In this document: positions 1,936 through 22,019 of the stretch, one piece after another
Position numbering within the stretch: position 1 is the first letter of the stretch
Layout of the letters: each line of letters starts with the position of its first letter
From: an uncultured delta proteobacterium
GTDB taxonomy: Bacteria > Desulfobacterota > Desulfobaccia > Desulfobaccales > 0-14-0-80-60-11
Length of the DNA stretch: 64,000 nt
Reading direction: 5' to 3'
NCBI GenBank assembly: GCA_963812015.1
Contig: CAWETI010000002.1
Coordinates: forward strand, 704,001-768,000
Notes under the pieces: generated by a model
Database searches by the model: none
What the model saw: the letters and a program-made list of their open reading frames with translations, nothing else
What the model was told of the DNA's origin: nothing
Made by a program: the position numbers and the translations under genes

Positions 1936-2790
1936 TTATCCTAAATACTCGATAAGAGTTATGCGATCTGCCTTGATGGTGTCATCCCGAGGTGGTTGAA
2001 CCAGTTCGATGTTCCAGCCGCGACTATCTATAGGGCATTCAAGCCGGATGATTTTGTCCTCGTGTAGTTCCACCAGACAATGGCTTAGGCCCAAGGTACA
2101 CTGTTTATCTTCTGTCTTGTAGTTTTTGTATTTGTTGGCTTGTAGAAATATTTCACCACCATCCAATTCAGGACATACTTGCGCCAACCGAACCATGAAC
2201 TGATCTCCAAGAAGTTTCACTTTGTCACCAAAAATCGAAGGCAAAGCACGGTAAAGCCGTCCATAGGGATTAGCCTGAAACTGGTCATTAGGATCATACC
2301 AGCCCAAGCCTAAATAGCTAAGCCATCGATCTAAACCAGTGTGCTTATCACGATTAAAAGGGTTAGTCTGAGGTTCGTTATTAAAGACATCTTGGTTGAA
2401 GCGGCTAGCCCATTCTTCCCTACTAAAGTTAGAACGATCATACACTTCTTTATCCAAACCAAGGTAGTACGCATAAAACAGGGCTAAATAAGGTTCTATT
2501 TGGAGACTGGATAAAACCGCCTGGTCAACCGCCCTTAGGATGTTTTCTTTCGCTGGTTTCTTCTTCTCATATTCATTGCTTAGCTTAATGGAACTTTGCT
2601 TCTCTTCAACCAGACCAATTTGTAGTGCTGCACGTATCGTATCCTTTGCCGTACCCTGACTACCTCCCGACAAAGGGCTTGGTTGTAACAACTCATAACT
2701 ATCTTCTCGCTTTAATCCGTTTGAGTATTTATTTAATACGTCAAGCAATACCTCAAGTCTTACTGGCGTTGCTGGCCCATCGGTAAACAC
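1936..2790 (-). CDS. dpdG: DpdG-like protein of the Dpd system
   Basis: 284 aa between a RecQ-like helicase and an ATPase; W-x-x-Y-LGLG and CPELDGG segments recalled as typical of DpdG; synteny. Confidence 0.7.
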   Translation of the reverse strand: MFTDGPATPVRLEVLLDVLNKYSNGLKREDSYELLQPSPLSGGSQGTAKDTIRAALQIGLVEEKQSSIKLSNEYEKKKPAKENILRAVDQAVLSSLQIEPYLALFYAYYLGLDKEVYDRSNFSREEWASRFNQDVFNNEPQTNPFNRDKHTGLDRWLSYLGLGWYDPNDQFQANPYGRLYRALPSIFGDKVKLLGDQFMVRLAQVCPELDGGEIFLQANKYKNYKTEDKQCTLGLSHCLVELHEDKIIRLECPIDSRGWNIELVQPPRDDTIKADRITLIEYLG

Positions 2791-8200: not shown

Positions 8201-8744
8201 TTTCAAATTCCACCCGATAGATATGTGGTGCGTGACCCTGACTCGGTTTTCGCTCTTGAATGATGCAGTTACCATTCTTTGTCTCGCAAGTGGTTCCAAT
8301 GGGAATATGGCTTCGGTGGAGGTAATTAGGGTTCAACTGCTTTTGTGATGGTGGAAAAAAGAAGTTTACAACTGCTACCCTACCTTCGAGATTCAATAAT
8401 CGCCCGAGGCCTAGACCTGAGTGTTTTACAATGCAACCGATCACTCCAGTTCCTTCTACCCGTGTCGATTTTGAGCGCTCTGTTGGACTTTCCTCCCCGC
8501 CTGAACCTTTCCGGACAGGATCGGTAAACTTCTCAATGGCATCAAACACTTCGGGGGAAATAATTGCATGCAGATCGTCGGCCAAACTAAAGACATGTAG
8601 GTTAACTGCACCCTGAAAGCATCTTAGATTCGGGTTGTAGGTCATAACTTGCATGACCCTTTGCTTCGCTTCGACAGGAATTGGCCCAATTAGATCCAAT
8701 GATTTGCAATTGCGGTTGAATTTCAATATGAGAGACAAGTTCAT
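5235..8744 (-). CDS. dpdE: SNF2/RapA-like helicase, DpdE-like (likely ATG start 8744; ORF track start 8762)
   Basis: LADEVGLGKT, IDEVH, GGEGRNFQ and EQRIGRLDRLG motifs; first gene of an E-F-G-H run. Confidence 0.8.
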   Translation of the reverse strand: MNLSLILKFNRNCKSLDLIGPIPVEAKQRVMQVMTYNPNLRCFQGAVNLHVFSLADDLHAIISPEVFDAIEKFTDPVRKGSGGEESPTERSKSTRVEGTGVIGCIVKHSGLGLGRLLNLEGRVAVVNFFFPPSQKQLNPNYLHRSHIPIGTTCETKNGNCIIQERKPSQGHAPHIYRVEFENGLEDELPETVLSPIKLVKPRDPLEVLATLQQEGYPIFKTREVLAQTYNALLRRCVGVKSLLSSRIDLYPHQAYVAGTVILDSKQRYLLADEVGLGKTIEAGIVIHDLLARNPRANILIICPGSLVQQWFTEMYSKFSGVIFRLPELSGINTVMMGQAVQVILSFYAALIHRKALMDKQWDLIVIDEVHNLLRVKPLYELAKKLSLQDRGLLLLSALPAQHRDHEYYDLLALLEPKKYRHNDVQAREHFSMLFERQREIGGRIGVVNRRLTELHEGGSEPDRVIKQLATLIELPVLHDDQFLNTAIAKLDPKSEIFAETVHQVLHHISDYYRINRRILRNRREKLIESEQIERLKRVQNTLFYNPDQYELDAVVSLERFLQSLRQTKLPEKILLPLTKELFHAAVHPKTLLQTLKISEQTLTGASEEKYGELHDLVSYSEWNNQMKYCWSSAREVLNPDLLLEAIRSVEAWERQGEVENLRLQRIFSMIEEKHRTQPKDKFIIFAGYPKLASILDEQLVKYFGQKSIARFYFGLNKDPIRERNLKEQEVRRFRIDQQAWLLICDETGGEGRNFQFAAELIHYDLPWQVAKIEQRIGRLDRLGRKRPEVVSSLVIAKGSKEEAWVKCLSEGLGVFSQSISGLEFALRDVELDVAQNLLSDDDQVLWDMPKNIKERMTEERARDESQSQMDEASYERTRAEQFRRVQSNKELDRDLEIRFCQYFKMISDKNSIQFPRQADYLEGVIEFYPEDVRQVQLNLLDNKKVRTGTFRREIAQNRPDLEFFSIGNDFFDSICHSLSDDSSGRTYAVECIADQPAWRGFEFSYRVKPSSQFTDQTSAYQNILDYLFAERIEHCFVHENGNVKEPPGDLLRLRRSFDKQNKGKIWKNLTHEKAALLSDHYSNWDELLRIIEKTARKHVYQRYNQILTPKIEEQLKCIDEQIRKLQFAKPDGWEDQAQDLCQLKEALGYWDLELDIAGFLSINGGILGF

Positions 8745-8777
8745 TCCACCTTCACAGTTCACATTCTGCGAACAACT

Positions 8778-9022: not shown

Positions 9023-9290
9023 AAACTCTCGGGCCTCCCAGGGTCATCTTTTTATAGATTTGTTAATGATTACGATCCTCCAATGATGATTCGAATAATA
9101 TAAGGCTATCCCTGAATTTAATCTAGAATTTCATTAAAATGGGGTAAGGGAACTGACCATATCCTTGGTGCTTCGATAGATGAGAAAAATCTGCGAGCCT
9201 TTCCCCTAATCAAGGTTGTTTTCTTAGAATAACTTTAGACGGGGGACCCTTAGTTTCCATTCAAACAAGACCACAACCAGGGTTAAAAGT

Positions 9291-9566
9291 TCAGAGGTCG
9301 ACCCGTTCCCGCAGTTCCTTCCCGACTTTGAAGAAGGGCAATTTCTTGCCTTCTACCTTGATGAGATCTCCGGTCTTGGGGTTTCGGCCTTTGTAGCCTT
9401 TGTAGCCTTTTACTTTGAAACTGCCAAAACCTCGAATTTCGATGCGCTCCTCATGTGCCAAGGCATCCGCGATATTCTCAAACAAGGCGTTGATGACCAT
9501 TTCAGCCTTTTTCAAAGTGATATTTTCAGCTTTGGCCAGGGCCTCGATGAGTTGGGACTTATTCAT
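9291..9566 (-). CDS. ihfB: Integration host factor beta / HU-family DNA-bending protein
   Basis: MNKSQLIEAL...IEIRGFGSF...GRNPKTG...PFFKVGKELRERVD; GGAG SD before ATG 9566. Confidence 0.85.
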   Translation of the reverse strand: MNKSQLIEALAKAENITLKKAEMVINALFENIADALAHEERIEIRGFGSFKVKGYKGYKGRNPKTGDLIKVEGKKLPFFKVGKELRERVDL

Positions 9567-10172
9567 GCCGCTATTCTCCTTGCCTGGTGTGGCCTGAGCC
9601 TGAGGGGCTTGACAGCGAAGGCACCCTTCACCCGTAATATCATTCATTTATACCTATATTCCCAAACGCACCTCATAGTCAACAAATCTCGGCGTGAGGG
9701 CAACCCAACGACCAAATGGTGGGGCGTTACCGGAAAGGATAGGGATCGGTCAGGGTTCGGGGATTGGGATATATATGAGGTTATGTCACGAAGAAGAGGA
9801 AATGGTTAAGACTCTTGGGGGAGTTTGGCCTCTGAAATTAATGGCCGGGACAATTTTTAATGGGGGCACTTGCCGGGGACGGTGAAATGGGCGAAAAACA
9901 ATTAACTTTAAGCTCCGAAGGATAAGCGCAGATAAACAAGGATAAGATAGAGGTTATCTTACTGAAATTAAAGTGTTTTTCAGATAATTTATGTTTTGGG
10001 ATGGGGATGTGGAGAAAATGCCGAAAAAGTATGAATGGTACGGGCGGGAGGAGGAAAAAAGTCAGAGGTTTATTGGTTGGTAAATACGAACTTATTTAAT
10101 ATAAAAGACAAATCAGGTTTATAAATTTTCAGCAGTAACTTTTATGGTAAAATTCTTCGACATTATAGGCTC

Positions 10173-10481
10173 TTAACCCTTATCAGCGTCTTCCTTTTCT
10201 TCCTCTGAAATAGCCTGGGCCAGCTTTTTCCCTGCATCGGTCAAGGTGACAGCCGTTCGATAATGGGTAAGTTTTTCCTGCCAGTATTCAATCAAGCCAC
10301 GCCAGAACAGGCGGGTTAGGCTTCTGGATAAGGCACTATGAGCTGCGGCATATCGACACTTATCAGAAACGGCCCCAGGCTGAACCTCCCATAGGGTTAA
10401 TAGGTTTTGGCATGTTACCAACTTTCCCTGCAGGACATACGTCAGAATCCGCTTTTGAACAAGCGATAGTCCCCGGCCCAT
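10173..10481 (-). CDS. Winged-helix (MarR-like) DNA-binding protein
   Basis: LSRSLTRLFWRGLIE...VTLTDAGKKLA wHTH pattern; last gene of the replication operon. Confidence 0.55.
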   Translation of the reverse strand: MGRGLSLVQKRILTYVLQGKLVTCQNLLTLWEVQPGAVSDKCRYAAAHSALSRSLTRLFWRGLIEYWQEKLTHYRTAVTLTDAGKKLAQAISEEEKEDADKG

Positions 10482-10484
10482 AGG

Positions 10485-10823
10485 CTAACCTCCTATGCAC
10501 TTCGACAAAATCCTCAGTGCTTTTAGCTGTTGAAGCTCAGATTTGTTATTGTCGGCCATGTCTACAATAGCCTGGGCAATCTTCAGCTCTCGAGCTCCCG
10601 CACGGCGGAAAAAAGCTTTAGGGCTGGCGCTAAATTTATTCAAGATTGCCCTTCCGGTGTTGCAAAGGGCTTGGTCACTGGACCCTCGGTAGCCTGCAGC
10701 CCTGGCCGAATCTTTTATTGAAAACCCGGAAAAATATAGTTCCAAGAACGTGATCTGACGCGGCAAGAATTTGAAATCTTCTTTATCATTGTAGGACATT
10801 GGGTTACCCATGCCCAAATTCAT
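10485..10823 (-). CDS. Terminase small subunit-like HTH protein
   Basis: RQITFLELYFSGFSIKDSARAAGYRGSS...GRAIL resembles the TerS N-terminal F..Y...A.RAAGY motif. Confidence 0.5.
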   Translation of the reverse strand: MNLGMGNPMSYNDKEDFKFLPRQITFLELYFSGFSIKDSARAAGYRGSSDQALCNTGRAILNKFSASPKAFFRRAGARELKIAQAIVDMADNNKSELQQLKALRILSKCIGG

Positions 10824-11397
10824 CAGGTTCTTTCCCCGCCCCTATACACCGTTGCACATAGCTTATTTTTGCCAATATTTCCTGCAAGATAGATAGTTCT
10901 TGTTTAATGTAGAACTCCTTCAATTCCTGGGTATCCTTACACTCATACAGCAGGCAGCCGCGGGGGGTGCCCAGGCAGAACATATAGACATTGGCCTGGA
11001 TCAGATGCTCAGGTTTCGGCTCATAAGACCCATAGAATTGATTGGCATTCATAGATTTAATTTCCAGAATGCCGTCAATGCCGTTAATCTCTATGATGCC
11101 GTCAGCATGCCCCCTGATCTCATACTCCTCATGTTCCACGGCGACCTCGGTTTCCCGCAGAACCCCGATTTCTTGCAAATACCCCTGCAACCGGCTATGG
11201 ACAGCGTGGCCGTTATCGAAGATCCGGAGAACTCGAGGCTCAAACTCCTGGTTGGCATCGCCCTGGAGGTAATGATGGTACAGTTCCCGCGGTGATTTGT
11301 GTAGGCTGGAGGGGTGGAAGCACCTCCGAGGTCTTTCAGCCCTGGGCCTGGTTTGCAGATATTTGTCAATTGCCTGAATAATCATCACTTCCTCCAT
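10804..11397 (-). CDS. PD-(D/E)XK Cas4/RecB-like exonuclease
   Basis: PSSL, G.AVH, GHADG, LEIKS and Q...YM motifs. Confidence 0.75.
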   Translation of the reverse strand: MEEVMIIQAIDKYLQTRPRAERPRRCFHPSSLHKSPRELYHHYLQGDANQEFEPRVLRIFDNGHAVHSRLQGYLQEIGVLRETEVAVEHEEYEIRGHADGIIEINGIDGILEIKSMNANQFYGSYEPKPEHLIQANVYMFCLGTPRGCLLYECKDTQELKEFYIKQELSILQEILAKISYVQRCIGAGKEPDEFGHG

Positions 11398-13529
11398 GTC
11401 TGATCAATCATAAGGTCCACTTCTACTGGGACCGTTTTTAAGAAATCCTTACCTGCCCGTATCATCTCGGCTTTGACGATCTCTTTCACGGCCGCCGCCT
11501 GATGCTCCGCGACCTCGATCACTATCTCATCATGAACCAGATTAATGATTTGGGCATCATATGGCCGCAAGGCCTCCATGAGATAATGGATGGCCTTCTT
11601 GAGGATATCCCCGCAAGTGCCCTGTATGGGAGTGTTGCGACCTTTCCGTTCCAGTGACTTTTGGCCTGAAAAGCTGTCTACGGGTGGGTAATAACGCTTC
11701 CGTCCAGACAGGGTCTCGGAATAATGTCGACGCACCGCCTGCATCCCTAAACGCTGCAGGGTGTCCTTGACCCGGGGGTAGGCCCGGAAGTAGGCATGGA
11801 TAAATTTCTCGGCTTGCTCCAAGCCAATACCCAACCGGGCAGCCAAGCCCTTGGCCGTCATCCCATAACACAGGCCAAAGTTAATGGTCTTGGCCACATT
11901 GCGTTGTTCCTTGGTTATCTCCTCAAGGGGTACACCAAACATCTCTGAAGCTGTCCGGGCGTGCAGGTCGTGACCATGGTGATATGCGTCAAGAAAAGCC
12001 GGATCCTGGGAATACTCGGCCAGGATCCGGAGTTCGATCTGTGAGTAGTCAGCAGTGATAATCTGGTACCCTGCCGGCGCCGTGAACAAATCCCTCCATT
12101 CCTGTTCCTTGGGGATCTGCTGGGCATTGGGTTTCTCACAGGTGAACCTCCCAGCCTCGGTGCCGGTCTGGTAAAAGTCTGGGTGGATTCTGCCGGTGTG
12201 CTTATTGATGTGATCTGGCAGAGGTTTGACGAAGGACGACAGCAGTTTTGATACCTTACGGTGCTCCACCAGAGTCCTGGCGAGGGGATGGTCTATCTTT
12301 GATAGAACTCCAATGCCGGTACTTTCCAGGCTGATTCCCAGGTTGGCAAATATCTCCTTCACCTGGGCAGGTGAGTTAAAGTTAACCTTGGACATGTCTC
12401 CGAAAAGGGTAGGCTCCTTTTCCCCTGCCAGTTCATGTAACTCCGTTTCCAGTTGAGCCAACCTTGCCTCAAGGGTCTTTTTTAGGATCCTGAGTTTGCC
12501 TAAATCTAGCAGCATCCCAGCCAACTCCATGTCGGCCACGGCTGGGGCAATAGCGAATTCCAAAAGAGCCGCGTCCGCCAGACCCGCTTGGGCCAGTTTA
12601 TCAGCCTGCCGCCTAAAGATCGGCTCCAGAACCTTCACATCATTCACGGCATAGTCAAGCTGTGAGCGGCTGATCTCTTTGTCAGAGAATGAATTCTGCT
12701 GAGCCTTGTCCAACTCCAGCCCAAGATACTTTTCCGCCAAAGCCTTTAAGGAAAGGTCACCTTTATCCGACAAGCCGGCGGTCAGCAGCGACTCGGCCAG
12801 ATAGGTGTCGAAGAGGTTCCTGATGGTTAGGTCAGGGAACAGGTGCCGCTTGAGGAACTTGATGTCGAATTTGAGATTGTGGCCTATTTTTAGAATCGCC
12901 TGATCCTCCAGGATGCGCCGGAGAATGCTGAAGCCGAGCTGATCTGGGCCAGCGCTTTTCACATTGATGACGAAAACCTTTTCCCCGGCCATGATCTGCA
13001 CCAGTACCAACTCGGCTGAATAAGGGTCCAGGCCGGTAGTTTCAGTGTCAATGAAGACCTTGCTGACAGAATTTTCCTTGACGTATAAGTCAATTAATTC
13101 AAGTTCTTCGCCGGCCTGGATATGAAAGACTTCCGGGCTGGTGTCTTGATGGGGGGATTCGGAAGTGATGAACGTTCCATCCCAGCGTTTAGATTCTATA
13201 ACCGCCTTGGCCTGATCGGACGATTCCAGGATCAAGGGCATAATGATGGGCAGTTCCTCCGGTATAAAGACCAGGTCGCCCTTCTCACGCCACTTTTTTA
13301 TAGCCGCTCCCTCATCTGGCGCCAGCCAGACATTATCCCCCAGAAGGTCTTGATATTCTAAAGAAACACCCATCCTCACAATTTCTGTAAGTTGACCGGC
13401 AAAGGCCCGGTCAAGAATTGATTTCTTGAAGGCATCGTCGGACTGAGGAGTCGCCGCCACCCCCCCAACCTCCGGCATGACCTCTCCTGCGACCTCATGA
13501 CTGGTGGATGTAGTTCTCAAGACAAGCAT
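11385..13529 (-). CDS. Family A DNA polymerase with 3'-5' exonuclease domain, no 5'-3' exonuclease domain
   Basis: Exonuclease motifs IDTETTG, HNLKFD, YAVND; polymerase motifs ADYSQIELR, AKTINFGLCYG, NTPIQG, VHDEI. Confidence 0.9.
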   Translation of the reverse strand: MLVLRTTSTSHEVAGEVMPEVGGVAATPQSDDAFKKSILDRAFAGQLTEIVRMGVSLEYQDLLGDNVWLAPDEGAAIKKWREKGDLVFIPEELPIIMPLILESSDQAKAVIESKRWDGTFITSESPHQDTSPEVFHIQAGEELELIDLYVKENSVSKVFIDTETTGLDPYSAELVLVQIMAGEKVFVINVKSAGPDQLGFSILRRILEDQAILKIGHNLKFDIKFLKRHLFPDLTIRNLFDTYLAESLLTAGLSDKGDLSLKALAEKYLGLELDKAQQNSFSDKEISRSQLDYAVNDVKVLEPIFRRQADKLAQAGLADAALLEFAIAPAVADMELAGMLLDLGKLRILKKTLEARLAQLETELHELAGEKEPTLFGDMSKVNFNSPAQVKEIFANLGISLESTGIGVLSKIDHPLARTLVEHRKVSKLLSSFVKPLPDHINKHTGRIHPDFYQTGTEAGRFTCEKPNAQQIPKEQEWRDLFTAPAGYQIITADYSQIELRILAEYSQDPAFLDAYHHGHDLHARTASEMFGVPLEEITKEQRNVAKTINFGLCYGMTAKGLAARLGIGLEQAEKFIHAYFRAYPRVKDTLQRLGMQAVRRHYSETLSGRKRYYPPVDSFSGQKSLERKGRNTPIQGTCGDILKKAIHYLMEALRPYDAQIINLVHDEIVIEVAEHQAAAVKEIVKAEMIRAGKDFLKTVPVEVDLMIDQTWRK

Positions 13530-13543
13530 GGATTTCTCCTCTT

Positions 13544-13932
13544 AATATGCGACATACGACATATATACGACAAAAGGCCTGTCGTATTTCTCATGTAGAT
13601 GTATCCTTCAAAATCTCATTTACGACACACACGACAGGGGGGAAGAAGAAGCACACTTTTTTTCCATAAACCTCATGGATATACGACATACATACGACAA
13701 ACACTCCAATGTAGATAACATACTAAATTACCTAATTTTATTGCCCATATACGACAAACCTAAAGGTACTAAGAGCAAGAATTTTTATCAGTCCAATTCT
13801 CTGGGCTTTCAGAAAAAAACGTGTCTTCTACCTTTCCCGTGTCGTATGTCGTAAATGAACATATATTCAATGATTACCGCATGTTATTATACGACATTGG
13901 TAATGTCGTATATATGTCGTATGTCGTATATT
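13544..13932. repeat. Iteron array / putative replication origin: TACGACA heptamers in both orientations inside a 29-bp terminal inverted repeat
   Basis: TACGACA at 13555, 13566, 13621, 13682, 13693, 13750, 13890; TGTCGTA at 13580, 13840, 13847, 13904, 13915, 13922; 13544-13572 matches the reverse complement of 13904-13932 at 28/29; AT-rich core. Confidence 0.8.
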
Positions 13933-13937
13933 CTTCA

Positions 13938-16610
13938 TTACCCATCATCGATGATCTCAATCTGCTCCCCAGAGATGGGGTGCACAAATTGGATCCCCTT
14001 GCAAAGTTCAGGGAAATTGTTGATGAGCGCTTCACCAGCCGGTAGCATTGACTTTTTAGAGAAAATTGGGTTGCTGGCGGTTTCCTCCACTGGTTTGAAA
14101 AACACCTGCCGCCCACGCTTCTTTTTGTCGAGCAGCCCGTTTTCCACTGCTGGTTCCAGCCACCTCTCCACGGTGCGCCGGGTTTTGCCCGCCTTATTCA
14201 CCAACTCGGTCATGGACACCATGGCGTCCATTTCGTTCTCGCTGGTGTAAGCAGCATCTTTCCCCGCATAAATCTCCCGGACCATCTGCACCAGCATCTC
14301 GGTTTTCGGTGAGGTCCCCTCCACCGTCTCGATCAAGGTGCCTTCCAGCAGCTCCTTGACCATGAGGTAATCAACCACCGAGGCCTCCAGGTATTCCTGG
14401 CCATCCTTGCGGACTATCTTCCTCTGGTATTGGTGCAGCAGCGCACAAACCTCGATGGCCATCAGAATGCGTTCAAAGTCCCGGCGGATCCGCACCTTCT
14501 TGACCGGCATGTGCTGGGCTAACCACTTGCTGTAAGGGATGATTACGGGATACGGCTTCAAAACCCGCTGGATGTTCGTCCACCGGTCTATCTCAGCCTG
14601 CGGCAGCCCGGGATTTTCCTTGGCATACTTGTCACCGATTAATTTGATGATGGCCTGGGTTTGACCCTCCGACTCGTCGATGAACAGGGAGAAGATTCTG
14701 GTTTCGTTCTCATCAAATATCTGGGGTTGCGTGGTGGTGGTGATGAAGCCCGTGGGGCCTTCTTTGTCGATGACGACAGTTTCGTATTTACCGTCCACTT
14801 TGGCCGTATACTCATACCGCAGGCGGCCTTCGCTCATCAGGGTGCGGACCAGGTAGTTGATCTCGTCGCTCTGACCTGCGAATTCAAAAAATATAATGAA
14901 TTTATGTCGGAAATCTCTGTCCGAGTAGATGAGGGCCTTATCCGACATGCTGCTGTATTCATAGAAAAATTCTGCGGGGAATACTTTTAAGCACATTTTT
15001 AGAAGCCAGCTTTTCCCGGATGAAGAATCTGCCTTGATGGCCAGGCTGATGAGATTGTCTGCCAACAGACGGGATGTCAGGGCTATCAGCACCAGCCTGA
15101 TGTTCCGCTCCTCTCCCACCACCCCGAGCCGGCCAATAAATTTCCCGTAGTCATAGAGGAGGGACGGGCTCTTTAACAGTTCAATGGCTTTCTCCACCTC
15201 CTCCTTGGAGAGCTGCCGCTCCAGCTTGCCGTCCTTGGGCAGTTCAATGATTTGCTTACGGTACGCCAGGAGACTGCCGATATCTGCATTCTTCAGCTTC
15301 AGGGCCTTTTTCCTAGCCTCCAGGAATTTCTTCGCGGTGCCGGCATCCACACCCGACAAACAGCTGCCGGTGAATTTCTTCAACTGCAGGAAATTCTTGA
15401 ACCCATCCTCCCCCAGGCACAGGTCTTGAAATAACCCTTCCAGGTCCTCCTCCAGTAGGTATGCAAACCGGATAGGTGAAGGTTTCCGCAGTTTCCCGGT
15501 ACCTGGGTCATGGGAGGGCGTGAGGTTGCAGTTGCACAACTCAGCCTGGAAATCCTGGAAGTGCTCCATCACCACCTTCCGCAGAGCCTCACAGCCGTAT
15601 GGGGCCGCCTTCCCTTGGTTCCTTTGGAGATAGTAACGGGTCTTCTCCTCGGAAAAGTCCGGGCAACCGCCGATGATCTGCCGGATAAAGGCCAGATCTT
15701 GGTCCAGGTCACCCAGGGCCAGGGAGAAGGAACTCAGAGCCAGGCGGATCCCATGGGGGAGGTGATTCCCTGCCTTGCCTTTCTGTTTCAGGAACTCCAT
15801 CAGGTAGCAACGCTCAAAGATGCGGTCGCCATTGAGTGGAATTCCAGTGAGTGCACTTGGGCCTGGGGCTATCTCTGCGATTTCCACGGGTATGGCAAGA
15901 AAGTCCTCACGCAGCTTCTCATCAGGGCTGACAAGGAATGAATCAGTTACAAATGCAGATAAACGTTGAGGACGGTCAGCGTAATGAGGCTTATTAAAAA
16001 TCTTGGTGCCGAAAACCTTGACAAGCCTGCGCATGTCGAAGACGGAAGGATCTATCTTCACGCCTTCGGCTGCGAACTTCTCAGAGAACCTGCTCCCCCA
16101 CTTTTTGAGGCGGGCCTGGGCTTCTTTACGATTACTGGCATCAATAGATATCTCCGGGATCGGCATAAAGACCCAGAAGCCATTCCCTGAATCGGCAAGA
16201 ATTGCCTCCCCGTACCCCAAGCCGTTACTCATGGTGCGTTGAATCTCCACAGCAATCTCAAAAACTCGTCCTTTTTCGGCATCAGTAGCATTTAATTTCG
16301 CCGGCGCCATGCTATCCAGGTCGGCATATAAAAACCTTAGCCCGACAATGTCCTCATTAGTAGCTGATCTTGAACTTCCCAGGAGTTTCTGGTCCCTAGG
16401 CTGCAGGCCAGCGTAACACGTGAATCCCTGATGGTTATAGGCGACCACGCTCTCAATGAACGGCTGTTTATCACCCATAGCAAAATACTTGGTGGCCTGA
16501 GCTCCGCTAGGTTTTCTGAAGTATGTTTCAATAACTCCGGTATCGGTTTGAACAAGGTCAAAAAATCTGCCAATATCGGTCAGTTGCTTGCGTGTAATTT
16601 GCACTTCCAT
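13938..16610 (-). CDS. Primase-helicase: AEP/RepB-like domain, PriL-like Cys domain, P-loop ATPase and C-terminal wHTH
   Basis: YADLD, DSGNG and D...D.RRL.K..GT motifs; HLPHGIRLAL...DFSEEKTRYY...YGC...CNC; ADSSSGKS Walker A; EGPTGFITTTT. Confidence 0.75.
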   Translation of the reverse strand: MEVQITRKQLTDIGRFFDLVQTDTGVIETYFRKPSGAQATKYFAMGDKQPFIESVVAYNHQGFTCYAGLQPRDQKLLGSSRSATNEDIVGLRFLYADLDSMAPAKLNATDAEKGRVFEIAVEIQRTMSNGLGYGEAILADSGNGFWVFMPIPEISIDASNRKEAQARLKKWGSRFSEKFAAEGVKIDPSVFDMRRLVKVFGTKIFNKPHYADRPQRLSAFVTDSFLVSPDEKLREDFLAIPVEIAEIAPGPSALTGIPLNGDRIFERCYLMEFLKQKGKAGNHLPHGIRLALSSFSLALGDLDQDLAFIRQIIGGCPDFSEEKTRYYLQRNQGKAAPYGCEALRKVVMEHFQDFQAELCNCNLTPSHDPGTGKLRKPSPIRFAYLLEEDLEGLFQDLCLGEDGFKNFLQLKKFTGSCLSGVDAGTAKKFLEARKKALKLKNADIGSLLAYRKQIIELPKDGKLERQLSKEEVEKAIELLKSPSLLYDYGKFIGRLGVVGEERNIRLVLIALTSRLLADNLISLAIKADSSSGKSWLLKMCLKVFPAEFFYEYSSMSDKALIYSDRDFRHKFIIFFEFAGQSDEINYLVRTLMSEGRLRYEYTAKVDGKYETVVIDKEGPTGFITTTTQPQIFDENETRIFSLFIDESEGQTQAIIKLIGDKYAKENPGLPQAEIDRWTNIQRVLKPYPVIIPYSKWLAQHMPVKKVRIRRDFERILMAIEVCALLHQYQRKIVRKDGQEYLEASVVDYLMVKELLEGTLIETVEGTSPKTEMLVQMVREIYAGKDAAYTSENEMDAMVSMTELVNKAGKTRRTVERWLEPAVENGLLDKKKRGRQVFFKPVEETASNPIFSKKSMLPAGEALINNFPELCKGIQFVHPISGEQIEIIDDG

Positions 16611-16614
16611 CTTT

Positions 16615-17982
16615 TTATCCGTAAGGGACTTCTTCTATTTGATAACCACCATACGCCTGTTGTTTCCGGCTAAAATATTGAGACTCCGCTAATCCGACCA
16701 AAGAATCTACGAAGTCGTAGACAATGGCGTCTTTTTTCCCTTCATGGGTCCGCAGAATTCTCCCGACCTGCTGGCTGACTTTATTGCTGCTTCGAGCCGG
16801 ACACGTCAGGAACAGGCGGTCCAGCCTTTGGATGTCTAAGCCCTCATCTGCAAGTTTGGTGGCGAACAACACGCTGATTTTGCCCGTCGTCATAGCCTCG
16901 ATGGCCTGCCCCCGCTTAGATTTGCTGTCCGTTCCGGTAATCACTGCTGCCTTACCATCCTGGAACATCTTCATAAACAGCCGGTAGAGCTCCTTTATAT
17001 GGTTGATTCGTTCGCTCAGCACCAGGCAAGAATGACCCTCCCAGGCCTCGGCGATGACATGGTTAATGATCAAATTATTCCGTTCCCGGTCCCTCGTGAG
17101 CATAGCCAACAGGTGTCCATAGTCGCGACATTCGGGAAGGTAACAGTTAGTTTGAATTACTCTGATGGTGGGTTTCAGGATATGCCCATTGCTGAACAAC
17201 TCCTCCTGCCCCACCGTTGCTTGGATGGGTCCCATCACGGCATGGAGAATAAAACTCAAAGCATCCCGGCGCTCTGGCGTGGCAGTTAGTCCATAGCGAT
17301 ACAGTGCCGGGAACTGGCTAATCAGGGTCTGGAAGGTGGTGGCTGGGCAATGGTGGCACTCATCTAAGAGTACCAACCCAAATTGGTTGACGAATTGGGA
17401 GCCCAGAGGCTTGGTGAGTGACTGGACCATGCCTATGGTGATCGGTTTGATATCGAACCTATCGGCGCTGATCACCCCCCTTTCCACATCGGTGAAGGTT
17501 CTGACTCTTTCATCCCACTGTTGCAGTAAATCCTTGGTATGAACGAGGATCAGTGAGCGTTGGGCTTGTCTTAAAATTAGTTCGATCCCCATGACCGTTT
17601 TCCCCGCACCAGATGGTGCGTGTAGTAGACCCTGAAACTTCACCGACAGTTGATTTACCGGCTCGACTTGATAATCTTTGAGGGTGATTTGTGATGCGCT
17701 GAACTCAGCAGTTCTGGTGACTGTTCTGTCCTCGATTTGCAGGAAAGGGTTGTTGACGAACAAATTAGCGATAAGGCCACGAGGTAAGATCAGCGAGGAA
17801 CCAGTTTCTTCAACCAGGCAGATGGTTTTAGGGATTCCGAAGGTACTGAAACCAAGACGCTCAGCTTCGGCATGGCGTGGATTTGGATAAGTAAATCGCT
17901 TCTGCAATGCGGCCACGTTCAGGTACGGATTATCAGATTTACATATCTCTAAATAGTTGTGGATAATGATTTTGTTCACCAT
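16615..17982 (-). CDS. SF2 DEAD/DEAH-box helicase (XPB/SSL2/ResIII-like)
   Basis: APSGAGKT, DECHH, LTATPER, EGLDI and QQVGRILR motifs. Confidence 0.85.
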   Translation of the reverse strand: MVNKIIIHNYLEICKSDNPYLNVAALQKRFTYPNPRHAEAERLGFSTFGIPKTICLVEETGSSLILPRGLIANLFVNNPFLQIEDRTVTRTAEFSASQITLKDYQVEPVNQLSVKFQGLLHAPSGAGKTVMGIELILRQAQRSLILVHTKDLLQQWDERVRTFTDVERGVISADRFDIKPITIGMVQSLTKPLGSQFVNQFGLVLLDECHHCPATTFQTLISQFPALYRYGLTATPERRDALSFILHAVMGPIQATVGQEELFSNGHILKPTIRVIQTNCYLPECRDYGHLLAMLTRDRERNNLIINHVIAEAWEGHSCLVLSERINHIKELYRLFMKMFQDGKAAVITGTDSKSKRGQAIEAMTTGKISVLFATKLADEGLDIQRLDRLFLTCPARSSNKVSQQVGRILRTHEGKKDAIVYDFVDSLVGLAESQYFSRKQQAYGGYQIEEVPYG

Positions 17983-17998
17983 TGGTCGTCCTAAAGTT

Positions 17999-18024
17999 GC
18001 GGGGGAAGTCGGTGCTTCCCCCGC
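17999..18024. terminator. Perfect 10-bp GC hairpin between genes (no U-tract; pause or processing site)
   Basis: GCGGGGGAAG-TCGGTG-CTTCCCCCGC. Confidence 0.45.
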
Positions 18025-18033
18025 TATCGGTAA

Positions 18034-18645
18034 TTACGCTGTCCACGGGTTTCCAGCGTTCGCCGGCTGAGTTGCTGATACCGTCTCGACAGCAGCCTGG
18101 ATGATTGTCGGATCCGGGTCCGAATCGGTTGGCGGCATCCCGATGACGATGGTGAATACCGCCACGCCGTAGCGCCCTCCCTGTTTACTCGTGCGCGGTA
18201 CCACGCTAATTTTCACCCAGACATCTTCCGGTCTTAGGCCTGAATTCTTCAAATGCCGAAAGAAACTCCCAGCGGCGCTGGCGGAAGTTGGGGACAATGA
18301 CAAGATCGTCGTCTTCTCAGGGTCCTTTATGGCCAGTTCCATCCGGGGCTGATACCCCTCAGGATAGGGCTGACGGGTGAGCGGCATCTTCGACAAGACA
18401 ACGCCCTCAAACTTGCCCAAGTAGGTCTCGATCCCGACGATTCGTCCAGTAATGAACGGGACGGTGTGATCGAACGCTTTGTAATGAATGCCAATTTCTG
18501 TGATCGATGCGAAGTACCCCTCTGGGGCAACGCTCGCCGCCGCCTCAAGATTCTCGTCGGAGATTTTGAGGGTAACCAAATCTTTTCTTTCTTCCTTGAT
18601 GGCCGGAATGTTTGTCGTTACCTTCTTATCATCCTTATCATCCAT
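18034..18645 (-). CDS. Hypothetical protein, possibly phage-type ssDNA-binding/annealing protein
   Basis: Strong AGGAG SD; beta-rich core with flexible tail ending NPWTA; precedes helicase and primase. Confidence 0.45.
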   Translation of the reverse strand: MDDKDDKKVTTNIPAIKEERKDLVTLKISDENLEAAASVAPEGYFASITEIGIHYKAFDHTVPFITGRIVGIETYLGKFEGVVLSKMPLTRQPYPEGYQPRMELAIKDPEKTTILSLSPTSASAAGSFFRHLKNSGLRPEDVWVKISVVPRTSKQGGRYGVAVFTIVIGMPPTDSDPDPTIIQAAVETVSATQPANAGNPWTA

Positions 18646-18660
18646 GCTTCTTCTCCTTTT

Positions 18661-18747
18661 TCAGTTGGTTTTCCAGGTCGTTTTTGGGTTGCGCTTCTTC
18701 GTCATAGGCCGTTGATTTGATGTTCTTTTCGGGTTTATTTCCGGCAT
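18661..18747 (-). CDS. Small basic 28-aa ORF (MPEINPKRTSNQRPMTKKRNPKTTWKTN)
   Basis: Starts in a TGATG overlap with the alpA stop, GGAGG just upstream, ends just before the next SD. Confidence 0.3.
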   Translation of the reverse strand: MPEINPKRTSNQRPMTKKRNPKTTWKTN

Positions 18748-18965
18748 CACCTCCGTTGGTCGCTGTTCTGGTGGGGTCCTTGCTCTTTCAGACCCTGAAG
18801 CCAAGCCTCCAGGTCACTTCGCAGCCAACCGGAGGCTCTGCCTCCAGCTCCAAGCTTCACTCGACGTGGGAAAGTGCCGAGCCGTTCTCTTCGCCAAAGC
18901 GAAGTCCTGCTCAGGCCCACAAGCTTAATCACTTCCTTTTCTCGCAATATCATTGATAGTTCCAT
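18747..18965 (-). CDS. alpA: AlpA-family regulator / excisionase
   Basis: LREKEVIKLVGLSRTSLWRRERLGTFPRRVKLG...GWLRSDLEAWL. Confidence 0.85.
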   Translation of the reverse strand: MELSMILREKEVIKLVGLSRTSLWRRERLGTFPRRVKLGAGGRASGWLRSDLEAWLQGLKEQGPHQNSDQRR

Positions 18966-19165
18966 AGCAAACCCCTCTTGTTTCTGCTAATTGCTCAACA
19001 TGGTCAAATTGAACCATAAAGTTGCGTGCTTTGCGAGAATAATAGCAAGGAAGGTTACTTAAGCGAAAGGGAGGAGTTGAATAGTAAGAAAATACTTAAG
19101 TTAGGAGAATTTGTGATTTGCGTTACAAGGCGGGGCAAAAAAGGTTACTTAGTTCAAAGTGTTAA

Positions 19166-19984
19166 TTATATCATATCCCATGGGTAATCAGGATCAATAT
19201 TCCGCAGTCTCTTCTTAAGGGCTTGGTAGGATATTTTTTTGGAAAGGAATCCTTCTTCAACCAATTTGACAATAACTTGATTCCAGGGGGCGAAATTTTT
19301 CCTGGTTCTCTTTCTTTTCTCCTCGGTGTGCGTTTTGCTTTGCTGTTTTGTATTCTTGAGCGTTTCAGCAGTCACTCGCATTCTATTTCGCAACTGTTCT
19401 TGCAACTCTGCCAATGTATAGGGAATTTCTGGATTAGATGAATTTTCCCGAACCTTCATTTCAGCTAAATAATTCAGGGGGGATTCTTTGGCTAGGGCAG
19501 AACCTGTGATAACCCCACGAAGCTCCAGGACCCTCATCATAAGGGTTATATCTTTGGGGCGCTTCATGCCAGTCTCAATACCCACTATCTTGGTTTCTCG
19601 CAAGACTTCGCGGGCATCGTGCCTTCGGAGCCGTAACATCCGAATCCATTCGACGAAATGGTTCCTAACCCAATGGGGAAGCTCCGGGTGAAAATCGGCG
19701 AACCGAGGTAAAACCTCTGCATATTCTCCGGTGGAATCGAATACAAGGCTGAAGCCGGGCCGCCGAGTTTCGGCAGGACGGCTCCTCAACAGGCCGGACC
19801 TGAGGGCTTTAACGGACAGTTCGTCAATCCTCTTTTGGATCTCATAAAATTCAGGGACCTGAATACCAGTTTTGGGGTCCCCTGGCGGGAGGGCTCTGAA
19901 TTTTTCATTTTCTGCCTTGATTTCCTCGAGAAGGCTCCGTTGTCTTGGAGTAATTGGAGGAAAATCAGGGGTGGAATTTTTCAT
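19166..19984 (-). CDS. Hypothetical protein between integrase and alpA (possible regulator)
   Basis: 272-aa ORF with GGAG SD; position typical of P4-like island regulators; no recognised motif. Confidence 0.6.
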   Translation of the reverse strand: MKNSTPDFPPITPRQRSLLEEIKAENEKFRALPPGDPKTGIQVPEFYEIQKRIDELSVKALRSGLLRSRPAETRRPGFSLVFDSTGEYAEVLPRFADFHPELPHWVRNHFVEWIRMLRLRRHDAREVLRETKIVGIETGMKRPKDITLMMRVLELRGVITGSALAKESPLNYLAEMKVRENSSNPEIPYTLAELQEQLRNRMRVTAETLKNTKQQSKTHTEEKRKRTRKNFAPWNQVIVKLVEEGFLSKKISYQALKKRLRNIDPDYPWDMI

Positions 19985-20077
19985 CTTGACGACTCCGGTT
20001 CTGCCCTGGATTCCAGGGAAAGCGGCCCAGGATTGCCACCTTGTCGGGAGCGACCTTATCCATGGGAATCTTCTTAT

Positions 20078-21298
20078 TTAAACTCCACGAACCATCGGGA
20101 TAACATTAGTTTCCGCGCCTTTGATTATGCCCTTGAGCTTGCACCCCCAGGCTTCCAGGGCTTGCCTTTTCTCCCGATCGTAACTATGGCGGTCATAAAC
20201 GGCGGTTACGCCCTTCTCCACATGATTCAGAATCTTGCTCACCACCAACCGGGAAATGCCCATGCCGGTCATATGGCTGGCCGCGCTGCGCCGCAGGTCG
20301 TGAGGAACAAAGCTGAACCCCAGGGCCTCCAGGCCGGGGCGCCTCAGGGCATGGTCGATGGCCTCCGGGGTGATGTGCCTGTCAGTCTGGGGTGAGGGAA
20401 AAATCCAAGGCGAGTTGCCGGTGATGTTCTTCGCCGCTTGGAGTAACTCCATCGCCAGGTGAGAGAGGGGTACTCGGTGGGCCATCTTATTCTTGGCCTT
20501 CTCAGGCGGGATCGTCCACCACCTGTCAGTCAAATCAATTTCATCCCAGGCCGCCGATACAATTTCGGCCTTTCTCTGGCCGGTTACCAGTTGCAGCTTG
20601 AGAGCCAGCTTTGTTCCCTTTGACATCATTTTCGCCCCTTCTATGGCATGCCAAAGGGCGCGGATTTCATCCGTAGTCAACACCCGGTCCCGCCGCTGCT
20701 CCGGAGCCGGGGCCCTGACCGCCAGGCAGGGGGAGACGGCTACAATATCCCGGCTCACGGCGAAGTTGAACATCTTACGAATAGTCGCTAAGGTTCGGTT
20801 CGCCATGATGCTGGCGCCCCGGTCAACTATGTCATCAAGCAGCCCGATAACATCCCGCCGGGTGATGTCTTTGGCCTTGCGATGACCCCACGCCGGCAAA
20901 ACGTCCTTTTGCAAGATGCGGGCGTCTTCCCGCCAGGAGCGCTTGCGGGGCTTTGCCCACTTCTCCAAGTATTCCTCGGCCAGGGCAGCCGCGGTGGGGG
21001 CGTCACGTTCTTCCTTACGTTCGTTAATGGCTTTAGCTCCAGGATTAATTCCATGACGAAGCACCTTCCAGGCATCTGCATGGGCTTCATGGGCGTCGGC
21101 CAGGGTCAGCTCCGGATATGTCCCCAAAGTCATCCACCTGACTTTACCATCGAATCGGTATTTGAAGATGAAGGTCTTGACTCCATTTGGCGTCACCCGT
21201 ACTCCCAAACCACGCTCTCCCCACTCTGTGTATCGTTTGTCCTTACCCTTCAGGTTCTTAATTTGAAAGTCGGTTAGTTTCTTTTTCCCATTTTTCAT
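20078..21298 (-). CDS. int: Tyrosine integrase with N-terminal arm-binding domain (P4-like)
   Basis: GLGVRVTPNGVKTFIFKYR arm domain; catalytic TGQR, KNK, HDLRR, LNH, VYD; likely ATG 21298. Confidence 0.92.
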   Translation of the reverse strand: MKNGKKKLTDFQIKNLKGKDKRYTEWGERGLGVRVTPNGVKTFIFKYRFDGKVRWMTLGTYPELTLADAHEAHADAWKVLRHGINPGAKAINERKEERDAPTAAALAEEYLEKWAKPRKRSWREDARILQKDVLPAWGHRKAKDITRRDVIGLLDDIVDRGASIMANRTLATIRKMFNFAVSRDIVAVSPCLAVRAPAPEQRRDRVLTTDEIRALWHAIEGAKMMSKGTKLALKLQLVTGQRKAEIVSAAWDEIDLTDRWWTIPPEKAKNKMAHRVPLSHLAMELLQAAKNITGNSPWIFPSPQTDRHITPEAIDHALRRPGLEALGFSFVPHDLRRSAASHMTGMGISRLVVSKILNHVEKGVTAVYDRHSYDREKRQALEAWGCKLKGIIKGAETNVIPMVRGV

Positions 21299-21316
21299 CT
21301 CAGCACCGCCTTTGGG

Positions 21317-21340
21317 CTGGGCTACCATCTGGGCTACCAT
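21317..21340. repeat. Tandem 12-bp repeat, putative integrase arm-type site
   Basis: CTGGGCTACCAT twice, between the integrase start and the att core. Confidence 0.55.
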
Positions 21341-21479
21341 TTTGAGGGTGGCAATAGGTGAAGCATAAAGGGGTCTCTTGAAACAAGAAATACCAGGATC
21401 AATTAGGATTGTCAATGAATTAAAGAAGTACGAGGAGATATTCTGGAGAGATAAAAATCAAAAAGAAACGTCACTTGTC

Positions 21480-21528
21480 CTGATTCGTAATCAGCAGGCC
21501 CGGGGTTCGACCCCCCGTGCCGGCTCCA
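21480..21528 (+). other. attR: 3' fragment of tRNA-Thr(CGT)
   Basis: CTGA-TTCGTAA-TCAG anticodon arm, CGGGGTTCGACCCCCCG T-arm, ends CCA; no acceptor 5' strand or D-arm upstream. Confidence 0.85.
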
Positions 21529-21532
21529 GTGA

Positions 21533-21545
21533 TATCAACGAGTTA
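21533..21545 (+). promoter_or_regulatory. IHF consensus binding site
   Basis: TATCAA-CGAG-TTA matches WATCAANNNNTTR exactly. Confidence 0.55.
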
Positions 21546-21619
21546 GGCAACTAGGCCTTCCCTCCATTTAGTTCTGTGGGACTCTGTGTAGGACTCTCTG
21601 ATAGGACCTCATCCAATGC

Positions 21620-21958: not shown

Positions 21959-22019
21959 GTTTACCCGTAATTGTCGGGTATGAACTCCACCCCCGGCCTA
22001 CTCTAATATAACTTGTAGA

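Follow-up and report, generated by a model that had tools for sequence, protein, structure and literature searches.

What kind of mobile element carries a tyrosine integrase, a tRNA-derived repeat and replication genes built around a family A DNA polymerase of its own, next to defence genes? This question is raised by a block of genes in the genome of an uncultured delta proteobacterium (assembly GCA_963812015.1). The window that was analysed is a stretch of 64,000 nucleotides (nt) of contig CAWETI010000002.1 (referred to as C2), extending over C2:704001-768000, and window coordinates are used throughout unless preceded by "C2:". The block is the right-hand end of a larger island, which is probably a 57.5-kb site-specific integrative element residing in the 3' half of a tRNA-Thr(CGU) gene and composed of a recombination module, a phage-derived episomal replication module and ca. 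45 kb of cargo. That it is an integrative element equipped with its own replicon can be proposed with considerable confidence. The right-hand attachment site (attR) and the recombination module comprise the following features:

21480..21528, + strand: attR core, a perfect 49-nt copy of the 3' part of tRNA-Thr(CGT)
21319..21339, + strand: two GGGCTACCA arm-type sites, 12 bp apart, with a matching pair inside the left-hand attachment site (attL)
20078..21298, - strand: inward-facing tyrosine integrase (frame open to 21415; Pfam, PHROG)
19166..19984, - strand: 272-aa protein (p272) without family assignment
18747..18965, - strand: AlpA-type excisionase/regulator (PF05930, 1.4e-12; phrog_66, 4e-11)

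A first-pass annotation of the window, made from its letters alone, had placed a tRNA-Thr-bounded element of about 12 kb here and suggested looking for the intact tRNA gene further left. The sequence to the left of the window was retrieved and its genes were listed, and the intact tRNA-Thr(CGT) gene (attL) was found on the same strand at C2:667976-668050, which is 36 kb before the left edge of the window. The attachment site originally proposed thus stands, and the size does not: the full element occupies C2:668051-725528 (57.5 kb), of which the window holds only the right-hand 21.5 kb. The 49-nt core is present in exactly two copies, identical to each other, within C2:660-735 kb, and the idea of tandem islands within the 57.5 kb was dropped because a third, decayed copy is absent from that region. 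ARAGORN predicted no tRNA around 21480-21528, where only the 49-nt partial copy lies, and Rfam searches at the gathering score returned nothing in 8500-22200. The second GGGCTACCA pair is located at C2:668097 and C2:668109, 46 nt inside attL, and the attR-side pair ca. 150 nt inward of attR, shortly before the probable start of the integrase; genome-wide, the motif occurs in 60 copies (both strands counted). Judged from their sequence and spacing, the paired motifs are laid out like the arm-type sites used by integrases that have an arm-binding domain. The tRNA-Thr gene, the 49-nt repeats and the GGGCTACCA pairs therefore delimit an element of 57.5 kb, whose integrase points inward from the partial-tRNA end. 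The GC content inside the island is 0.33-0.55, compared with 0.58-0.65 in the chromosome left of it and beyond ca. 25000 on the right. The 3.7 kb directly right of attR (21529-25188) also have a lower GC content (ca. 0.5) and begin, as judged by eye, with a transposase (rve-like) fragment; the 19 nt past the attR core match the 19 nt past the attL core at 14 positions. This segment may have been left behind by an earlier insertion at this tRNA gene.

The integrase is readily recognised (Pfam Phage_integrase, 3.7e-26; Arm-DNA-bind_3, 3.7e-19; Phage_int_M; phrog_1, 3e-77), and its translation probably starts at the ATG at 21298. For p272 no family was found in Pfam, PHROGs, NCBIfam or PADLOC, and its Atlas score was below 0.9, with no usable family. 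From 21415 down to 9291 the minus strand carries one unbroken run of open reading frames (ORFs), in which every gene from the integrase to the IHF gene named in the first-pass annotation is present, at or beside the position first assigned to it. Central to this run is a replication module of ca. 8 kb (10804-18645):

18034..18645, - strand: 203-aa OB-fold-like protein (p203), candidate single-stranded DNA-binding protein (predicted structure)
16615..17982, - strand: superfamily 2 (SF2; XPB/RadD-like) DNA helicase (Pfam, PHROG)
13938..16610, - strand: 890-aa primase-helicase, putative initiator, with AEP, PriL-like Fe-S and P-loop helicase (PF27228) parts (Pfam, PHROG, alignment)
13555..13928 (374 bp), no strand: iteron array, putative origin, with 13 TACGACA motifs
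11385..13529, - strand: PolA, family A DNA polymerase with 3'-5' exonuclease and without a 5' nuclease domain (Pfam, NCBIfam)
10804..11397, - strand: Cas4-like PD-(D/E)XK nuclease (phrog_1706, 1.1e-36; PDB 4ic1, 4.4e-4)

The presence of a family A polymerase-based replication module belonging to a tRNA-integrated element, as had been supposed at the outset, was thus confirmed. PolA gave strong matches to both of its domains (DNA_pol_A, 1.9e-102; DNA_pol_A_exo1, 9.5e-30; NCBIfam NF011539, 534 bits), and the columns invariant in a 26-sequence alignment include D161/E163, D222, Y293/D297, D494, R543/K547/Y555 and H666-D667-E668, which we take to belong to the Exo I-III and Pol A, B and C motifs. 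The host has retained its own polA (a 938-aa frame on contig C3). Residues 1-150 of the island PolA (11385-11840) form an N-terminal extension without a family match; a stand-alone 325-aa frame of a related genome (G001:C1:59158-59517) matches residues 10-125 at 41%. The primase-helicase matches Pfam DNA_primase_lrg over its PriL-like stretch (1.1e-5), phrog_2478 (4.4e-9) and NCBIfam PriL/PrimPol models (1e-4), and its alignment displays AEP-type acidic motifs, four conserved cysteines and a Walker A motif. It is a rare protein: only 32 homologues at E-values up to 1e-5 were found among 5.8 billion proteins, and a comparison with 50,697 phage records yielded no real match (two partial ones, of 25-27% identity). 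Several of the 32 are on contigs whose lengths recur among the polymerase matches, and ENA contigs of 75, 85 and 141 kb hold homologues of PolA and the primase-helicase. The SF2 helicase was identified by ResIII (4.5e-26), Helicase_C (1.7e-13) and phrog_16 (1.6e-78), and the D99...E112-x-K114 motif of the Cas4-like nuclease is invariant.

The gene of p203 had first been labelled SSB-like. A predicted OB-type barrel agrees with this label, and the fold matches are only weak: in the AF2 model (pLDDT 72.7) a beta-barrel at residues 44-166 is accompanied by one helix and a disordered tail, the top Foldseek rows are RPA and SSB (E-values 0.008-0.1), and VIA gave the best score (Z 7.9) for the recombination directionality factor of PhiC31, followed by RPA, gp32 and LEF-3 (Z 5-6). 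In the model, these matches amount to a generic OB-fold likeness, with scores too low to rule out that the arrangement is simply a common one. The tail ends in a tryptophan (W201) that is invariant in 18 sequences. In Pfam, PHROGs, NCBIfam and PADLOC nothing was found for p203, and the Atlas offered no usable family.

The putative origin lies between the primase-helicase and PolA genes, in a gap of 408 nt. Of 14 TACGACA matches in the whole window, where 2.3 are expected, 13 lie within 13555-13928, and a count of 14 was reached in none of 100 shuffles. The plus strand carries seven of the motifs, all but one in the left part of the gap, and the minus strand carries six, all but one in the right part; the gap also holds inverted arms of 44 nt, 84% complementary and 301 nt apart. 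The closest relative of the element (locus L086, see below) has TACGACA iterons at the equivalent place between its primase-helicase and PolA genes, and two further relatives (L090 and L091) have different iterons at that position, in opposed orientation. The iteron sequence therefore varies while its position is fixed, as would be expected if origin and initiator change together.

The first-pass annotation had recommended a search for genomes in which this gene set co-occurs, and a recurrent syntenic family was indeed found. The IMG/VR and JGI metagenomes were scanned with the primase-helicase alignment, which revealed 17 loci (numbered with the prefix L) on 16 distinct contigs. PolA lies behind the primase-helicase in 10 of the 10 loci in which this position is visible (L086, L087, L088, L090, L091 and L096-L100); the remaining six of the 16 are cut off at the PolA position or, as L101, have only a weak relationship. 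An SF2 helicase precedes the primase-helicase in 11 of the 16, a p203 relative precedes the SF2 helicase in most related loci, an integrase is found upstream in seven of 16, and a Cas4-like gene follows PolA in six of 16, with L085/L087 added by a later scan. In L098 (497-1888) and L099 (915-2306) the SF2 helicase is split into two ORFs (254 and 203 aa). Among the metagenomic relatives of PolA, identity to it is 49% or more in ca. 75 of the 120 clusters listed, and most are ca. 650 aa long with exonuclease and polymerase domains.

The closest relative, L086 (74-82% identity; on a contig of 42.6 kb), has the same order of eleven genes and features, namely integrase, hypothetical protein, AlpA, p203, SF2 helicase, primase-helicase, TACGACA iterons, PolA, Cas4-like nuclease, p112 and p102 (the last two are described below), and a partial tRNA 3' half beside the integrase. 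The cargo behind this core is different and consists of an SNF2 helicase and a GmrSD nuclease. L088 is a complete element of 13,550 bp, bounded by perfect 52-nt repeats (at 76-127 and 13626-13677) that correspond to the 3' part of tRNA-Gly(CCC), with the intact copy at the end far from the integrase, as in the window element, and with tandem GTGGGGAA motifs inside both ends. Its genes encode an integrase, three small ORFs, a p203 relative, SF2 helicase, primase-helicase, PolA, Cas4-like nuclease, a 141-aa helix-turn-helix (HTH) protein and a TPR protein. No structural gene, and neither terminase nor capsid, was found between its repeats; the capsid-less state is therefore not peculiar to the genome studied here. 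Contigs from four public metagenome runs were also inspected: identical contigs of low depth are present in one freshwater-sediment run, and relatives of ca. 88-90% identity in groundwater and sediment runs as well as in one RNA library (which may contain DNA). An apparent backward joint, in X8, is accounted for by the similarity between the two arm-site regions.

The remainder of the island is largely cargo. All island ORFs of at least 60 aa (in a non-overlapping selection) were scanned with Pfam and most of them also with PHROGs. In the ORFs of C2:668051-725528, the 36 kb left of the window included, these searches found no capsid, portal, large terminase (TerL), tail or lysis gene, and Pfam no relaxase, coupling protein or type IV secretion system family (an oriT is not recognisable in this way), which agrees with the early description of the element as free of capsid and conjugation genes. 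A weak "holin" PHROG match (2.9e-5), on a YLATT-domain protein, is the sole row of lysis or structural type. PolB was likewise not found by Pfam, the only polymerase being that of family A. Defence cargo makes up ca. 45 kb of the 57.5 kb and includes a complete Dpd system, reportedly a system of 7-deazaguanine DNA modification and restriction, which extends over C2:683753-702857 (L001:17753-L002:18857) and window positions 3-8762. The genes directly adjoining the core, in agreement with the claim that the element ferries defence systems, are dpdH, G, F and E (PADLOC):

5235..8762, - strand: dpdE, SNF2 helicase (PADLOC, 7.3e-179; Pfam SNF2-rel_dom)
2810..5245, - strand: dpdF, DEAD-box helicase (PADLOC, 1.2e-129; Pfam DEAD/Helicase_C)
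1936..2790, - strand: dpdG (PADLOC, 3.9e-11)
3..1931, - strand: 5' part of dpdH, which continues left to C2:702863 (PADLOC, 6.8e-99)

The other PADLOC matches are DpdA (9.4e-179), DpdB (1.7e-146), DpdC (1.3e-68), DpdD, DpdK and DpdJ (E-value 0); a 226-aa ORF in the position of DpdI gave no PADLOC match. The cluster also contains QueC, a QueD-like PTPS, a radical SAM protein and FolE2 (Pfam). Between folE2 and dpdC lies a split UvrD-type helicase (362 and 399 aa, with GajB-like matches) with a PD-(D/E)XK protein beside it. At the left end of the island, an HNH nuclease-HIT domain fusion (L001:3824-4861) has PtuB-like and ThsC-like PADLOC matches, and a SIR2-like protein adjoins a 766-aa protein without a family (L001:6489-9880); the HNH-HIT, SIR2-like and 766-aa genes are possible uncharacterised defence genes. 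Further cargo comprises DUF6946 and YLATT proteins and a DUF2779/Cas4-like protein.

Between the nuclease gene and the Dpd cargo, three genes for small proteins complete the co-oriented run:

10485..10823, - strand: p112, 112-aa protein like a small terminase subunit (TerS), with an SF6/SPP1-type small-terminase HTH plus helices (profile against PDB)
10173..10481, - strand: p102, 102-aa probable winged-helix regulator (MarR chains, E-value 0.03, weak)
9291..9647, - strand: HU/IHF-beta-like DNA-bending protein (PF00216, 4.1e-30)

For p112, 70 relatives were found among 1.84 billion representatives, and a profile built from 59 of them had as its three best PDB matches 3zqp (8.1e-8), 2cmp (3.9e-7) and 4zc3 (6.3e-7), limited to the HTH. 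Its earlier label, TerS-like, accordingly applies to the N-terminal HTH only (SF6-type TerS domain, 8e-8). Terminase_2 was matched weakly by two of the 59 family members, and p112 itself gave nothing in Pfam, PHROGs, NCBIfam or PADLOC. In the AlphaFold model (pLDDT 84.7) it is all-helical, and small terminases fill most of the Foldseek top ten, without significance. The position of p112 is that of phrog_57 TerS genes in relatives (L098, 5.5e-25; L124, 1.2e-22; L091, 4.6e-14), and with the p112 profile a homologue of p112 itself was detected in L086 alone of the first 17 related loci. Behind the replication module of L091 (13848-14904) and of L124 (2185-3191) stand two neighbouring, diverged phrog_57 small-terminase genes, the duplication in L091 being visible as a 262-nt repeat of 76% identity. 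The winged-helix label of p102 is weak at the MarR score listed above, and nothing was found for this protein in Pfam, PHROGs, NCBIfam or PADLOC. It is nevertheless the hallmark of a wider set of islands, being encoded behind replication genes in L086, in L113 and in four other places in this genome. As to the third protein, named IHF in the first-pass annotation, its HU/IHF family membership holds and the narrower name falls short (NCBIfam IHF-beta, 107 bits against a cut-off of 115). The gene is accessory, as it is not present in L086, and is 89% identical to chromosomal C2:1303612 and 78% to C3:1005812. In the four metagenome runs, the contigs that cover it diverge from the window exactly at its stop codon. 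Because of these chromosomal paralogues and of the divergence at the stop codon, it looks like a captured gene of host type.

The wider set consists of simpler islands. In L113 the order is integrase, a 282-aa protein, PrimPol-helicase, a 102-aa protein, p112-like, p102-like and a Type ISP restriction enzyme. At the four further places in the genome (C3:1126595-1137662, C3:713019-722366, C3:2150836-2156197 and C2:1615180-1621036) relatives of p102, and once of p112, follow a gene for a primase-helicase or SF2 helicase, and in most cases Type ISP-like restriction genes come next; one of these places is an island of ca. 11 kb between two tRNA-His(GTG) copies, with integrase, PrimPol/D5-type helicase, p102-like protein and Type ISP enzyme. 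The C-terminal helicase domain of the primase-helicase is common in relatives, where it is joined to Prim-Pol/PriCT-1 or Toprim primases. Judging by gene content, the window element looks like an elaborated member of this broader set of integrase/primase-helicase/defence islands, from the simpler of which it differs by the phage-type PolA, the SF2 helicase, the OB-fold protein and the nuclease. In another related genome (G026:C38; L114:9036-11870) a 944-aa family A polymerase, 42% identical to that of the island, has an N-terminal zinc ribbon of DnaG/primase-helicase type and is located 1.8 kb from a Prim-Pol/PriCT-1/D5_N/DUF5906 primase-helicase.

The origin of the replication module was approached through its polymerase and its distant relatives. 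In a quick PolA tree (IQ-TREE, LG+G4, 54 rows, 641 columns), a single clade (SH-aLRT 99) contains the 19 element PolAs and, together with other stand-alone exonuclease-plus-polymerase enzymes from metagenome-assembled genomes, makes up a clade of 31 (support 100); cellular Pol I, that of the host included, forms a separate clade (99). All eight sampled phages fall outside both clades, one of the phage rows being very long-branched, with a warning of long-branch joining. The best matches of PolA among the 50,697 phage records were of 30-34% identity. The top "phage" matches, H1 and H6, were rejected, being host polA genes on bacterial contigs filed among phages. A profile scan of the genome contigs with the PolA alignment, which contains the universal PolA motifs, retrieved almost only cellular Pol I (best identity 39%). 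In IMG/VR, PolA relatives at 39-42% identity occur in viral contigs of 115-120 kb, and Cas4-like and PolA genes of the element clade are also found on short viral contigs, followed by packaging genes. TerL is present in two (L147 and L203) of the nine loci with at least 1 kb visible behind the nuclease gene; the other seven are the window, L085/L087, L086, L088, L090, L091 and L124, and L098 ends after TerS. Since TerL lies behind the shared nuclease gene in two viral contigs, the module is regarded as phage-derived and is common to phage-like genomes and capsid-less elements.

Taken together, these features suggest how the element may function. Excision would give a circle, on which the 890-aa primase-helicase would recognise the TACGACA iterons, open the origin, load its helicase domain and prime synthesis, as the gene anatomy and the change of iterons at a fixed position suggest. 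The exonuclease-proficient PolA would extend the primers, presumably assisted by the SF2 helicase, the OB-fold protein and the Cas4-like nuclease; the last of these might replace the 5' nuclease missing from PolA or drive recombination-dependent replication. Transfer is not self-encoded, and the TerS-like protein suggests packaging by the large terminase of a helper, as with phage-inducible chromosomal islands (PICIs). A role of the module in replication is well supported by its predicted genes and motifs, and a satellite lifestyle is only inferred; packaging by a helper phage is a genuine possibility on which we would not rely. Tentative, and rather doubtful as a whole, is a broader view, which assumes an unnamed lineage of capsid-less replicons descended from phages and takes the element as its largest complete representative. 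Such replicons, having a whole PolA replisome, an iteron origin of their own and an exchangeable TerS, would over-replicate after excision independently of the host replisome, would be packaged by helpers sharing the module and would carry up to 45 kb of defence genes among bacteria of anaerobic sediment and groundwater, thereby forming a continuum between phages, satellites and defence islands.

Several observations weigh against the element being such a replicon and satellite. On sequence grounds alone the iterons could be regulatory sites. The TerS-like assignment of p112 depends on ca. 38 residues of HTH, its fold searches were not significant (Foldseek E-values of at least 0.2; VIA Z of at most 5), and hhalign detected no similarity between its profile and the phrog_57-type TerS of L098 and L124; p112 occurs, moreover, in simpler islands without PolA, and given this and its dissimilarity to phrog_57 TerS it may be a regulator. 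The size of phage satellites is usually ca. 5-20 kb, and 57.5 kb is far above this (L088 has 13.55 kb). The element is also rare, as the full primase-helicase was found in one of 101 related genomes and one of 401 genomes of the phylum, both times in the genome studied here. Most related contigs are short (4-21 kb visible), so that structural genes may lie farther off in them, and the contigs of the public runs, which cannot show rare junctions, gave no sign of excision, of a circle or of a change in copy number. Finally, L147 carries a 530-aa phrog_2 TerL (1e-26; PDB terminase nuclease domain, 0.004) just behind the nuclease gene, and in L203 the nuclease (79% identical to that of L088) is followed by a TerS-like gene and an ORF of at least 434 aa; 98-99% of the length of this ORF aligns with the TerL of Wolbachia phage WO, at 46% identity. 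Part of the family therefore looks like ordinary phage. The first-pass annotation had held that homologues confined to prophages would speak for an ordinary or degraded prophage, and this came out half true: PolA/Cas4-like genes precede TerL in these two IMG/VR contigs, but capsid-less members exist as well.

It may be asked, then, whether the island is a temperate prophage that has decayed, its integrase, early/replication region and TerS having survived while TerL, head, tail and lysis genes were lost and overwritten by defence islands, leaving it immobile. The sequence of integrase, regulators, replication genes and TerS is the order of a temperate-phage early region, and both the PolA relatives on large viral contigs and the arrangement of L147 and L203 fit such a descent. 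We regard it as quite unlikely here, however, because the core ORFs are all intact, the attachment cores identical and the arm sites kept at both ends; L086 has the same core, followed directly by other defence genes, and L088 is complete at 13.55 kb, with perfect repeats and without structural genes. Three independent capsid-less copies with different cargo indicate a stable architecture and not random decay. Very improbable, in our opinion, is that the polymerase, primase, helicase and nuclease are themselves cargo for repair, damage tolerance or anti-phage activity and do not constitute a replicon, although translesion synthesis and end joining are known for a PrimPol-helicase pair of mobile genetic elements that is associated with defence islands (PMC11724360) and the author of the paper on polymerase-SSB pairs raises a defence role as a possibility (PMC10061031). 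An iteron array at a fixed place with a varying sequence is typical of an origin and its initiator; moreover, the module adjoins the integrase in relatives, whereas the cargo varies, and the minimal L088 consists almost only of this module.

The p112 and p102 genes bear on another explanation, in which the island is a plasmid-like integrative element or defence island that replicates after excision and spreads by transformation, vesicles or mobilisation, with p112 and p102 acting as regulators between replicon and cargo. The p112/p102 pair, or p102 alone, behind simple primase-helicase genes in islands without PolA (L113 and the four places in this genome) would suit this role, as would the Type ISP restriction genes, or close homologues of them, behind p102 in L113 and in three of the four places, and the size of 57.5 kb; replication after excision or after single-strand uptake has, furthermore, been proposed for elements of the staphylococcal cassette chromosome (SCC) type (PMC10061031). 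Yet no relaxase, oriT-type or partition gene was found in the island by Pfam, the three best PDB matches of the p112 profile are terminase small subunits and not regulators, and relatives have clear TerS genes at the p112 position. Spread of this kind is thus unlikely, and we retain, as the most likely one, the reading of a tRNA-integrated element with a phage-derived replicon and defence cargo.

The usual view is that satellites and defence islands depend on the polymerase of the host or of a helper. The family described here carries a nearly self-sufficient replisome, and tRNA repeats delimit its two complete members without capsid genes (13.5 and 57.5 kb). An active replicon could raise the copy number, and with it the dose of cargo such as Dpd, independently of host replication. 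The compact origin, the varying iterons and the rare AEP/PriL-like/helicase initiator make up a tractable system for the co-evolution of origin-initiator specificity, and the TerL found in close relatives where others have cargo provides a concrete case of the change from phage to satellite or defence island. Through this family, the record of PolA-bearing integrative elements grows beyond marine virion data and includes bacteria of anaerobic sediment and groundwater.

As for known systems, the element has, like a prophage, a site-specific integrase and tRNA attachment repeats; a structural module is absent from between the repeats. The transfer genes of integrative and conjugative or mobilisable elements are absent from the island ORFs, as judged by Pfam. 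PICIs and P4-like satellites have the layout integrase - alpA - primase/replication genes - origin - TerS, without structural genes. The window element shares the integrase and AlpA at one end, a primase/initiator and origin of its own (as sequence features) and the absence of structural genes, with the TerS-like p112 as a candidate for the packaging gene, and differs in its family A polymerase, SF2 helicase, OB-fold protein and nuclease and in its 57.5 kb.

The orthologous group COG0749 is, presumably, the PolA group with exonuclease and polymerase domains. It is prominent among the VEIME, virion-packaged marine integrative elements (Eppley et al. 2022, PMC9618062), whose module 6 includes 78 of the 117 elements with COG0749 and is characterised by tyrosine integrase (94.9%), small terminase (52.3%), DNA polymerase COG0749 (40%) and helicase (36.4%). 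The window element resembles module 6 in integrase, polymerase and helicase and, through p112, perhaps in small terminase, and no capsid genes are listed for that module in the part of the paper used; DNA primase reaches only 0.5% there, and an AEP/PriL-helicase, a Cas4-like nuclease or a large defence cargo is not reported in the same part (PMC9618062). The VEIME are, moreover, marine, small and recovered from virus particles (PMC9618062). Tycheposons target a tRNA gene with a partial tRNA repeat and have an inward integrase, an adjacent replication module ("polymerases, primases, helicases") and cargo (bioRxiv 10.1101/2020.12.28.424599), all of which are present in the window element; some of them are PICI-like with TerS. 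In Prochlorococcus, their replication module is given as ca. 2-4 kb and their cargo as up to 10 kbp or more, compared with ca. 8 kb including a full PolA set and ca. 45 kb here (bioRxiv 10.1101/2020.12.28.424599). VEIME and tycheposons were compared with the present family by description and gene lists.

SCC-like islands carry primases derived from A-family polymerases together with OB-fold partners (Rice 2023, PMC10061031). They are similar to the window element in the absence of phage and conjugation genes and in the combination of A-family polymerase, OB-fold partner, helicase and conflict cargo such as restriction-modification; their polymerase is described as N-terminally truncated, a primase with an OB-fold SSB subunit, and they have mostly large serine recombinases and belong to Bacillota (PMC10061031). 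In contrast, the PolA of the window element is of full length with exonuclease motifs, the AEP primase is separate, the integrase is a tyrosine recombinase, and the OB-fold gene lies 4.5 kb from PolA. Other relatives by design are the PrimPol-PV1 class (iii) cryptic elements, integrated in tRNA genes and possessing AEP primases (Kazlauskas et al. 2018, PMC5862659), and the AgaPP/AgaPH elements, with integrase, PrimPol and helicase and enriched in defence genes (PMC11724360). Both have an AEP primase fused to or beside a helicase and a PriCT/PriL-like domain and lack phage and conjugation genes, but their PrimPol is taken as the replicase, and a dedicated set of PolA, SF2 helicase and Cas4-like nuclease is not described in the portions of these papers considered (PMC5862659, PMC11724360). 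Pipolins are likewise integrative, self-replicating platforms for exchangeable defence systems, with a primer-independent family B polymerase (bioRxiv 10.1101/2024.05.22.595293), of which the window element has no counterpart. The proposal of an undescribed class, made in the first-pass annotation, therefore has to be given up, as VEIME module 6 (PMC9618062), the tycheposons and the SCC-like islands are already in print. Full-text literature searches, which did not cover subscription journals, found no paper describing the present gene set. The general kind of element is thus known from the literature, and the gene set presented here is a new form of it.

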